A DNA stretch of 62,207 nucleotides, the filler included, from Globobulimina sp. (taxonomy: Eukaryota), in NCBI GenBank assembly GCA_003354225.1. It is 29 parts of 29 records of this genome, joined end to end, with 100 filler letters (N's around TTAATTAATTAA, not from the genome) between each part and the next. Parts side by side here need not be neighbours in the genome. Positions count along the whole stretch, not along the records: positions 30,090 to 32,138 come from PIVH01009438.1; 28 more parts are not named here. The stretch is one strand, 5' to 3'. The notes beneath the pieces are model-generated. The model saw only the letters and a program-made list of their open reading frames with translations. It made no database searches and was not told the origin of the DNA. The position numbers and the translations under genes are program-made. Of this stretch, positions 30,090-32,138 are shown in pieces. Positions within the stretch are counted from its first letter, which is position 1. Each line of letters starts with the position of its first letter.

Positions 30090-31857
30090 ACAAAGTGGAG
30101 AGGTACACTTTATGGGCGCCATAGCAGACCACGACGGTATATTTTATGGTATCAAATTACATAAACCAAACGGCGAAAACAATGGGACGGTGAATGGTAT
30201 TAAATACTTTGAATTTGACCAAAACTGTGGTATATTCGTGCAAGAAGCTAAAATCAAACAAAGTGCAGCAACAAATTCCAATTCTGAGTTGCCAAGAATC
30301 AGCATCGAAGACAGAGTCTTTGTGAAATCAAAATATCAGCATGGCACTTTATTATTTGTTGGCAGTGTCGACTTTGAACAAGAATGTGTATACGGTGTGG
30401 AATTGGAAGAGCCTTTGGGTGACAACGACGGCTCAGTCGGCGGCAGGCAATATTTCCATGGCATGGCGCATTACGGCGTGTTCTGCAAAGCTGCGGATAT
30501 TGCGATGGAGCAAAATGAGCCAAATGTGCTATTTCTGGAAAATGACATAAGTGTTATGAACCTACACAAAAAAAATGACAACGCCAACAACGGCACACCG
30601 GTTCCTCACAACGTCAACAATGGCAATGTGACTCACAGCACAAACTCAACATATTCAGACACAAACAGCCCATTACGGCATGTTGCCTTTAATGAGGATG
30701 GCAAAGAAGATAAATCCTCGTATGACAAAATGGAGAACTTTGCCGATGTCGACAGTGAGTATCCGCAGATTGGCAAAACCATTGTCATTGACGGGGGGAC
30801 CTACAGTACGCGGATCGGTATTTGTGGCGAAAAGGAGCCAACTTTGGTCATGGACACTGTCGACGATTGGACAGTGATCAAATCGCAGAAGCAACAGCCA
30901 CTGATTTATGGCACTATTAACAAATGGAAGTACATTGAACAATTATGGCTGTCCTGCATTGAGGAGAAATTGCAGTTTGATTCGACTGAACATCCGCTAA
31001 TATTGACAGAAACGCACGATATTTCCAAAGGTGATCGCGAGAAATTGACGCAAATGCTTTTTGAGCAGATACAGTGTCCCGCTTTTTATGTGTCGCCGTC
31101 TTCATTGTTCTCATTGTATTCGACAGGTAATATATGTGTATATATGCTGTAATTTTATGAAGTGAATGCACCAAAAACGTTAACAGGAAGGACCTCTGGC
31201 TGTGTGTTGGATTTTGCTTATGACTGTACTCGGATTGTGCCGATTTATGAGGGCTATGTACTGCAGCTCAATGCAGCTACGATCCAAATTGGTGGACAGC
31301 ACATATCATCGCAGTTGGCGTTGAATTTGGAGAAAAATAGCAAAGTTTCGCAGATCAAATCATTTGATATGAATGTATTGGAGGATATAAAAAGGAAACA
31401 TTGTGTTTGCGTGGCTTTAGATGATGGCGGAAAAGTGAATAATATCAAGTATAAATTGCCGGATGGTCAGGAAATAACTATTACGTCAAAGGAAGCGATA
31501 CAACCAACGGAGATTTTGTTCAGAAAAACGGATTTGATAAATACTGTATATTCTAATATTATGAAATGTGATAAACAATCTTATTCGGATATGTTTAACA
31601 ATGTGATTGTTTGTGGTGGGACATCGCTATTAAAAGGGATTAATAATAAAATAAAAATTGAATTGAATGAAGTGATAAAAGAAAATAAAGAGACAGCCAC
31701 ACAAATATTGCATGTTGCCAATCCAACACATCCACAATTGTCTGCGTGGGTTGGTGCTTCCATATTTTCTTCATTGGGTTCATTTGATAGGGCGTTGGTT
31801 ACAATACAAGAATATCAAGAATGTGGCGCACGAATTGTAAATCATAAATGTTTTTAA
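30090..31857 (+). CDS. Two CAP-Gly domains fused to an actin-related (Arp) domain; intron 31127-31186; 5' partial
   Basis: YGIKL..GENNGTVNGIKYF and YGVELEEPLGDNDGSVGGRQYF; then IVIDGGTYSTRIG, EHPLILTE, DREKLTQMLFE, VPIYEGY, YKLPDGQEITI, SAWVGASI, EYQECGARIVNHKCF. Confidence 0.92.
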
Positions 31858-31934
31858 TTGTTTTTTAGCATTATATCACCTTTTCTTGCTGTTGTTAATC
31901 TGATTACTGTGTTGAGTGTTTCTTTTGCCTAACA

Positions 31935-32138
31935 ATGAATGGAGATGATTCAAACCTGACTATGGGCAGCAGATTTTATCATAACTTATTCGATGTATTA
32001 GATGCAAATGATACAAACACACTTGACGCAAAACAAGCATTTGGTTTATTTAAAACCAGTGATTTAGATGATGCCATGTTGCAAAGTATTTGGAAACATA
32101 ACTGACAAGAACGCTGATGTTTTCAAAACTCAAACCCT
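31935..32138 (+). pseudogene. EH/EF-hand domain fragment with a +1 frameshift near 32094
   Basis: FYHNLFDVLD..LDAKQAFGLFKTSDLDDAMLQSIW continues as NITDKNAD only after a frameshift. Confidence 0.55.

Follow-up and report, generated by a model that had tools for sequence, protein, structure and literature searches.

A Globobulimina gene that joins two CAP-Gly domains to a divergent actin-related fold in one polypeptide

The stretch analysed here (the window; 62,207 nucleotides from Globobulimina sp., GenBank assembly GCA_003354225.1) consists of 29 unrelated contigs, each 2047-2050 nt long and ordered by length, with artificial N44-TTAATTAATTAA-N44 linkers between them that carry stops in all six frames. 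Genes across these linkers are not genomic neighbours, and the genomic context of the gene described here is thus confined to one contig, 30090..32138 (2049 nt, PIVH01009438.1), with a linker on either side. The plus strand of this contig encodes a pair of CAP-Gly domains followed, in the same chain, by an actin-like domain. CAP-Gly domain 1 (30091..30261), identified by Pfam, has lost its 5' portion at the contig boundary and carries the motif GENNG...YFEF; residues 2-56 of the protein align to the CAP-Gly chains of dynactin-1 and F53F4.3. CAP-Gly domain 2 (30307..30495, motif GDNDG...YFHG) has its best Pfam stretch at residues 73-135, corresponding to positions 2-63 of a 65-position profile. 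It is followed by a polar, acidic linker of ~93 residues (30496..30774), with no Pfam family between residues 136 and 228. The N-terminal part of the actin-like domain (30775..31126) comprises subdomain 1 and a reduced subdomain 2. The C-terminal part (31187..31854) ends in HKCF before a TAA stop codon (31855..31857) and contributes subdomains 3 and 4, together with subdomain 1's C-terminal helix. A 60-nt intron (31127..31186) with GT..AG borders, in frame and containing a TAA, separates the two parts. All of these features lie on the plus strand.

The plus-strand frame is open from 30091 to 31152, and the same frame resumes at 31153 and ends at the TAA of 31855-31857. The in-frame TAA that interrupts it, at 31150-31152, falls within the intron. 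As stated in the initial annotation, a single frame (30091-31126), with neither a stop nor an intron, runs from the CAP-Gly domains through the linker into the actin domain. The same annotation described an essentially complete actin domain ending in HKCF; the extent of the domain holds, but the intron inside it was not described there. Exon 1 terminates in a split Gly codon, and removal of the intron fuses ...SLYSTG to RTSGCVLD..., the equivalent of actin's SLYASGRTTGIVLD. The exon-1 product (345 aa, 30091-31125) matches Pfam CAP_GLY (PF01302, gathering cut-off 26.5 bits) in two stretches with an E-value of 2.6e-34 and 117.4 bits, and positions 5-138 of the Actin profile (PF00022) with an E-value of 7.3e-19 and 68 bits. 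The exon-2 product (222 aa, 31189-31854) matches positions 141-410 of the 410 in the Actin profile (E 3.7e-40, 138 bits). The contig encodes 568 aa, and ~18 codons are cut off at the 5' side by its start at 30090: relatives begin with M-x(4-6)-C-I-x-D-R-V-T-L-x-N-G some 18 residues upstream of the first residue of the window protein. The full protein would therefore be about 586 aa long. A tblastn search of the spliced protein against the window returned one match, the fusion gene itself, and no further copy.

We compared the contig with four public sequencing runs from four studies, for which the kind of run is not on record. A form that skips 60 nt, with GT..AG borders and the cut at +4, and thus corresponding to the intron 31127-31186, is present in 4/4 runs. 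Since the intron is missing from all four, the run contigs appear to derive from spliced RNA, an intron-less DNA copy being less likely. Transcript contigs reach beyond the 5' edge of the genomic contig by 46-87 nt, a length that can accommodate the ~18 missing codons. Record 5 of run X2 (1244 nt, depth 12) runs unbroken over 30090-31122 and 31183-31325, from CAP-Gly domain 1 through CAP-Gly domain 2 and the linker to midway through the actin domain, and differs from the window at 8 of 1176 aligned nt. The other three runs cover the junction region with contigs that abut or overlap, one of which (X6 record 12) covers 30468-31840.

The X6 and X7 sequences, which represent related strains, agree with the window at 90-99%. 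Two in-frame indels of 6 nt distinguish them from it, both in the linker: 6 nt are absent at 30617 and 6 nt are inserted after 30707. Listed coding changes between the window and X6/X7 number 33 (14 synonymous, 19 non-synonymous) and lie mostly in the CAP-Gly region and linker; 66 more exist, so that the list is incomplete for a ratio of non-synonymous to synonymous rates. At position 30215 the window has a T (TTT, Phe, giving YFEF) where 4/4 runs have a G (TGT, Cys, giving YFEC), which restores the canonical CAP-Gly YFxC. The T is either an assembly or sequencing error or a strain polymorphism.

The contig is short and the assembly is highly fragmented, which raises the question of whether an assembly chimera, or a neighbouring CAP-Gly gene and actin-like gene taken as one, could account for the fusion. 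Relatives with only one of the two modules are on record: P0004 (191 aa) has CAP-Gly domains only, and P0006 (374 aa), P0005 (394 aa) and P0159 (388 aa) have the actin-like domain only. Moreover, in 3/4 runs no single contig bridges the junction. Against such an artefact, the frame is unbroken over 30091-31126, the X2 contig joins CAP-Gly domain 1 to the actin domain with the few differences given above, and two further proteins, P0011 and P0003, repeat the CAP-Gly/actin junction independently at 48-63% identity, with a conserved junction sequence (...D-x-x-Y/F-P-Q-I-G-K-T...). We consider an artefact very improbable. The fusion had initially been proposed on the understanding that transcripts should span the junction, and the X2 contig does so. 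The single-chain gene for two CAP-Gly domains and an actin fold is thus genuine, transcribed and spliced, and comes from a foraminifer-type protist.

The two CAP-Gly motifs first noted by eye, GENNGTVNGIKYF and GDNDGSVGGRQYF, were both recovered, and Pfam recognises CAP_GLY twice. CAP-Gly domains bind the C-terminal acidic-aromatic tails of α-tubulin, EB proteins and CLIPs, and the canonical CAP-Gly loop GKNDG contacts the EEY/F carboxy-terminus. The lysine of this loop is replaced in both domains of the window protein (GENNG and GDNDG), and the glycines and Asn/Asp are retained. In domain 1, relatives have GKNNG where the window copy has E. In domain 2, where relatives read G-D/E-x-D-G, the lysine position is occupied by D or E in family members and in 2/3 of the printed paralogues (P0016, P0020, P0029). 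The CAP-Gly pair matches 33 distinct solved chains, with TBCB the best, followed by CLIP4, KIF13B, CLIP-170/Restin and p150Glued. The best solved match of domain 2 is the TBCB chain 1whg (E 1.8e-12), and p150 CAP-Gly chains match both domains with E-values from 1.6e-7 to 6e-6. Like CLIP-170, CLIP-115, CLIPR-59 and TBCB, the window protein thus has bona fide CAP-Gly folds, and their tandem order recalls the CLIPs. It differs from these proteins in that the GKNDG lysine is absent from the window copy, and in that an actin fold takes the place of the coiled coil and zinc knuckles or of the ubiquitin-like domain. By analogy with known CAP-Gly proteins, the pair most likely targets cargo to microtubules.

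Support for the CAP-Gly fold comes from a predicted structure of the relative P0011. In this model, the CAP-Gly pair and the intervening stretch (residues ~40-195) have a predicted local distance difference test score (pLDDT) of ~90-97 and show the expected β strands. Residues 199-277, the equivalent of the linker, have a pLDDT below 50 and are predicted to be disordered. The actin fold has a pLDDT of ~90, and the overall predicted template modelling score (pTM) is 0.58. As modelled, the architecture of P0011 is that of two folded modules on a flexible tether. Complex prediction between the CAP-Gly pair (34-200) and the actin part (270-619) of P0011 gave a score of 0.00 in both runs and provides no evidence either way. 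Residues 1-33 of P0011 also have a pLDDT below 50 and lie upstream of a M-A-T-V-C-I-Y-D-R-V start that matches how relatives begin; the true start codon probably lies downstream of the one called.

Two candidate features of the window protein were considered and set aside. RVxF is a docking motif for PP1, and the linker contains an RVxF-like string, R-H-V-A-F (30676-30690). P0011 is without it and the X6/X7 variant changes its F to L; similar K/R-x-V-x-F strings also occur in the linker or N-terminal extension of P0006 and P0003. Docking of the CAP-Gly pair on the C-terminal HKCF of the same protein was dismissed because the residues preceding the Phe are basic, unlike those of EEY/F.

Against three actin-type sequences, the actin part of the window protein has 31.5-33.7% identity; against members of its own family the figure is 57-67%. 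Residue numbers below follow what we take to be the standard actin numbering, anchored on DNGSG as 11-15. The DNase-I-binding loop (D-loop), whose deletion had been suspected from the start, is lost: a gap of 24 columns opens against the actins, and 15/15 D-loop positions are gone in 5/5 family members. The hydrophobic plug lacks 7-9 positions across the same five members, with 7 missing from the window protein. Compared with actin there are also a 7-residue deletion in subdomain 4 and a short insertion near residue 322. In subdomain 2, 20/37 positions are deleted and the remaining 17 are 17.6% identical to actin, against 36.5% in subdomain 1. The D-loop and hydrophobic plug make F-actin contacts, and Q137 and H161 position the hydrolytic water. 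Q137 is replaced by S, and H161 by R, in 5/5 family members. The phosphate-2 loop DSGDG becomes D-[FL]-A-Y-D-C in all five (L in one of them; DFAYD in the window protein), and the phosphate-1 (P1) loop of the family reads D-G/S-G-T-Y...R (D-G-G-T-Y in the window protein). Because the changes at the nucleotide site are common to 5/5 members, they represent a conserved new state and not decay.

Other features of actin are retained. These include GGT (301-303), K213 and D154, the W-loop IYEGYVLQ in 5/5 members, G168/Y169, F375, the hydrophobic residues at 345/346/349 and, in 4/5 members, Y143. The window domain thus shares with conventional actin the IYEGY W-loop, LPDGQ, GGT, the residues of the barbed-end hydrophobic groove and the C-terminal HKCF, as well as the four-subdomain fold. 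It differs from it in overall identity (31-34%), in the deletions of the D-loop, the plug and part of subdomain 4, in Q137S, H161R and DFAYD, and in the addition of an N-terminal CAP-Gly pair and linker. It belongs in PF00022, whose profile is covered across both exons and whose four-subdomain fold is seen in the model of the relative P0006. It does not qualify as a conventional actin by identity, D-loop, plug, Q137, H161 or DSGDG. Given the low identity, the loss of the D-loop and plug and the replacement of Q137 and H161, the domain is, judged from its sequence, an orphan actin-related protein (Arp) and not an actin subunit. Since the loops that make F-actin contacts and the residues for hydrolysis are lost or changed throughout the family, the actin-like domain is probably not filament-forming.

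A protein of this kind might nevertheless assemble by itself, its own filaments or oligomers bundling or coating microtubules through the CAP-Gly pairs they bear. The complete four-subdomain fold of the P0006 model is consistent with this, as is the conservation, without decay, of the family's nucleotide-site residues. Divergent actin folds also polymerise by other contacts, and MreB, ParM and BeeR are among the structural matches. A self-assembling polymer is nonetheless unlikely, given that 5/5 members lack the D-loop and plug and carry substitutions at Q137 and H161, and that subdomain 2 is short by 20/37 positions.

As had been recommended, structure prediction was carried out, on the relatives P0011 and P0006, and both the CAP-Gly and the actin folds were confidently modelled. 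The AlphaFold2 model of P0006, the Nonionella member, has a pLDDT of 88 and a pTM of 0.84, with residues 1-27 disordered. We searched it, independently of Foldseek, against 48,161 PDB representatives. Conventional actin (4pl7_A and 8thx_A type) aligns with a Z-score of 38.5 and a root-mean-square deviation (rmsd) of 2.5 over 318 residues, at 33% identity. Identity is 21% for Arp3 (Z 37.1), 22-25% for Arp4, 19-20% for Arp8, 21% for an Arp5-type chain, 23% for an Arp6-type chain and 21-23% for the Arp5-, Arp6- and Arp7/9-type chains overall; the assignment of PDB chains to these classes is in part presumed. The Z-score falls to 22 for Hsp70 and FtsA. In the sequence comparison with the PDB, the matches are actins throughout among the 60 rows listed. 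By identity in these structural alignments, conventional actin thus comes nearest among solved sequences, ahead of every Arp-class chain listed. We therefore assign the domain to an orphan actin-related family, provisionally as regards the Arp1/11 and tArp classes.

The top structural row is a Leishmania actin-like chain of the 96-nm repeat of the doublet microtubule (9y6s_6u, Z 38.9, 28% identity), and its Trypanosoma brucei axonemal 96-nm-repeat counterpart (9e5c_6j) aligns with a Z-score of 35.9 at 25% identity. The protein could in principle be an axonemal or ciliary Arp of flagellated gametes, similar to tArp or to a subunit of an inner-arm dynein, and held on the doublets by its CAP-Gly pair. 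In the portion of PMC13589156 available, tArp is described as an Arp family found in 47/72 of the species examined from SAR, the group that includes Rhizaria, and is located in cilia and in dynein and doublet fractions. tArp and the kinetoplastid axonemal chains are, like the window domain, divergent actin folds on microtubule-based structures. The same portion of that study makes no mention of a CAP-Gly fusion, however, and the structural scores of the axonemal chains are no better than that of ordinary actin; with the Z-score tied to that of conventional actin (38.5), the match is not diagnostic. An axonemal role seems improbable.

The initial annotation had pointed to dynactin, in which p150 and Arp1 provide CAP-Gly and actin-related parts as separate subunits. 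The window protein might accordingly be a single-chain dynactin analogue, with an Arp1- or Arp11-type domain and the CAP-Gly pair in the role of p150Glued, serving in dynein activation or cargo linkage. Dynactin does pair a CAP-Gly subunit with Arp1 and Arp10(11) subunits and so, like the window protein, brings a microtubule-binding CAP-Gly module together with an actin-related fold, according to the accessible sections of PMC3583065. The one dynactin chain listed, 5adx_J, aligns to the P0006 model with a Z-score of 33.1 and an rmsd of 3.0 over 328 residues. A domain without pointed-face loops also resembles, in principle, a filament-end subunit. The match is not diagnostic, however: actin is closer (33% identity, Z 38.5) than 5adx_J (24% identity), and the listed PDB sequence rows, all of them actins, favour no other class. 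Moreover, Pfam finds no coiled coil or other part of p150 after the CAP-Gly pair. The parts of dynactin are separate polypeptides connected via coiled coils and shoulder subunits, whereas the window protein is one chain with two CAP-Gly domains, a disordered linker and no coiled coil. The parallel with dynactin thus found no specific support, and we regard such an analogue as a poor prospect. The sole sequence named Arp1 in our comparison is P0231 ('actin related protein 1 [Entophlyctis helioformis]'). It has the actin D-loop and shares 84.6% identity with an actin-type sequence; it is really an actin, and its name looks wrong.

A maximum-likelihood tree of 27 rows, made of family and actin-type rows with no reference Arp classes, places 11 family rows in one clade (support 100/100) on a long branch from the 16 actin-type rows. 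One subclade holds both fused rows (the window protein and P0011) and also P0006; the fork has support of 81/75 and is drawn open. A second subclade consists of P0005, P0159, P0021 and P0163, whose records show no CAP-Gly domains. The start M-A-T-E-T is common to P0005 and P0159, which argues for their being genuine standalone proteins. P0006 (374 aa) and P0004 (191 aa) are transcriptome open reading frames (ORFs) and may be incomplete. In the ESM Atlas, the clusters nearest to P0011 are of actin/Arp type at 0.86-0.87 (lead threshold 0.9), and no cluster combining CAP_GLY and Actin lies near it; the Atlas has large clusters only, so that this is no proof of novelty. A separate curiosity is P0094 (679 aa), which has two divergent actin domains head-to-tail; in the tree the two group with each other (100/100), on a long branch next to the actins.

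Close relatives of the family are few. A profile search of 5.8 billion proteins found P0011, P0006, P0005, P0159, P0009, P0021, P0163, P0167 and P0168; below these family rows came inflated rows of 275-392 bits from long or tandem actin-domain proteins, with ordinary single-domain actins at no more than 229 bits. P0023 and P0003 are further relatives from other protein searches. P0011 (619 aa, from a 4018-nt contig) has CAP_GLY twice (E 5.9e-38) and Actin positions 5-410 in one stretch (E 9.5e-64, 215.9 bits), and is 61% identical to the window actin part. P0003 (306 aa, a truncated record) has the CAP-Gly pair, continues through the linker and ends ~30 residues into the actin domain. The relatives with a named taxon, P0006 (actin-like) and P0004 (CAP-Gly pair only), are foraminiferal, the taxa being Nonionella stella and Bolivina argentea; three relatives are marine metatranscriptome records. 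A metagenome scan with the family profile matched 229 stretches, of which 166 encode a relative and 80 were kept. None of these 80 is a family member (0/80); they are ordinary actin-type genes, 25-35% identical, that matched through the [IV]VPIYEGY pattern.

A HMMER search revealed that the same N-terminal CAP-Gly pair, from about residue 18, heads many other proteins. Pfam was run on 10 proteins, and those with the pair carry WW and MyTH4 domains, MyTH4, a protein kinase, EF-hands or nothing recognisable C-terminally. Bolivina argentea or Nonionella stella is named for six CAP-Gly-pair proteins; the EF-hand form is P0053. The foraminiferal EukProt paralogues P0016, P0020, P0027, P0029 and P0050 share with the window protein the N-terminal start and the CAP-Gly pair, with GKNNG in domain 1, and these cassette paralogues are 36-60% identical to it over query residues 2-140. 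They differ at the C-terminus, where they have WW and MyTH4, MyTH4, kinase or nothing, the actin fold being found only in the subfamily of the window protein. Because the same pair precedes WW/MyTH4, kinase and EF-hand modules in paralogues, the tandem CAP-Gly appears to be a portable, lineage-specific cassette in foraminifera, of which the actin fusion would be one shuffling product. The paralogue set points to a modular and possibly microtubule-targeted group of foraminiferal proteins. One further protein, P0012 (856 aa), has 7 CAP-Gly stretches.

Taken together, these observations fit best with a microtubule-targeting cassette that tethers a non-polymerising actin-fold adaptor, a tentative reading to which we give a probability of roughly 0.4. 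The CAP-Gly pair would bring its cargo to the acidic-aromatic tails of α-tubulin and EB proteins, that is, to microtubules. A disordered linker of ~90 residues would join the rigid CAP-Gly pair to a compact actin-related domain, which would form no filament since its D-loop and plug are lost and Q137, H161 and the phosphate-2 loop are altered. The barbed face of this domain, with its W-loop and groove, could accept a ligand. This might be the D-loop of a terminal actin or Arp subunit, amounting to pointed-end docking or capping, or alternatively another groove-binding partner. The actin-like domain could not itself be extended further. The standalone members of the family may do the same job, untethered.

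Several points weigh against this proposal. The lysine is lost from GKNDG in the window copy, and tail binding is possibly weak or redirected. Conservation of the groove may reflect stability of the fold and not a ligand site, and replacement of the phosphate-2 loop may mean a new ligand or cofactor and not simply the loss of ATPase activity. The close relatives P0005, P0159 and P0006 are recorded without CAP-Gly domains, so that the actin-like domain may need no tether. Pointed-end docking is suggested solely by the pattern of conserved surfaces.

A broader version of the proposal of a tethered, non-polymerising adaptor is conceivable, if doubtful. According to this, the family would be a private foraminiferal Arp family that acts on microtubules and not in actin filaments, one branch of which is covalently tethered to tandem CAP-Gly domains and couples actin or Arp filament ends, or a dynein-type partner with an actin-fold subunit, to the unusually dynamic microtubules of reticulopodia. 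If true, the fusion would act as a 'Rosetta stone', implying that standalone members are microtubule-associated as well. The suggestion first made for this gene, that of a lineage-specific microtubule-actin linker, holds in part. Its lineage specificity agrees with the named relatives, which are all foraminiferal, but a linker of this kind presupposes an actin part that behaves as actin does, which the missing D-loop and plug and the replaced Q137 and H161 make doubtful. The role in reticulopodial motility raised along with it is speculative.

The initial annotation knew of no characterised single-chain fusion of this kind, and no description of one was found in the literature searched. The texts found on CAP-Gly with actin-related proteins and on the foraminiferal cytoskeleton leave the fusion undescribed, though an unannotated database entry may exist, and none of the texts found joins CAP-Gly and Reticulomyxa. 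CAP-Gly occurs 0 times in the Filoreta preprint and 0 times in a study of the Rhizaria cytoskeleton (PMC5455982), the available part of which deals with actin1 and actin2 paralogues. In the accessible sections of the survey of dynactin evolution (PMC3583065), the word 'fusion' occurs 0 times. What is new is the architecture of two CAP-Gly domains with an actin fold, together with an orphan Arp family; each kind of domain is already known.

CAP-Gly domains and Arps normally meet as separate subunits, for example in dynactin. An expressed and conserved single-chain fusion thus offers a testable handle on the coupling between microtubules and an actin fold in fast reticulopodial networks. It also defines an orphan Arp family without polymerisation loops and with an altered nucleotide site, and indicates that foraminifera may put a tandem CAP-Gly cassette on several effectors (MyTH4, kinase, EF-hand and actin fold). 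Even with a mundane function, the gene would provide a clean case of lineage-specific shuffling of cytoskeletal domains.

Downstream of the fusion gene, a second ORF (31935-32105, +) begins 78 nt past its stop codon. It has a sub-threshold match to the EH domain (PF12763), with an E-value of 8.2e-4 and a score of 19.7 bits where the cut-off is 22. The stretch 31741-32100, in which the fusion gene ends and this ORF begins, is covered by one transcript contig (X1 record 4). Contigs from X1, X2 and X7 track the window as far as 32100 and then share one different continuation; the bases of the window past 32100 are without a GT start. The cause of this divergence may be an atypical intron border or an assembly error at the end of the contig. 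Finally, contigs of high depth (142 in X1, 35.7 in X2) match the window over only 33 nt (31450-31482, in the LPDGQ region) before diverging from it, and are probably transcripts of conventional actin that share this conserved patch.

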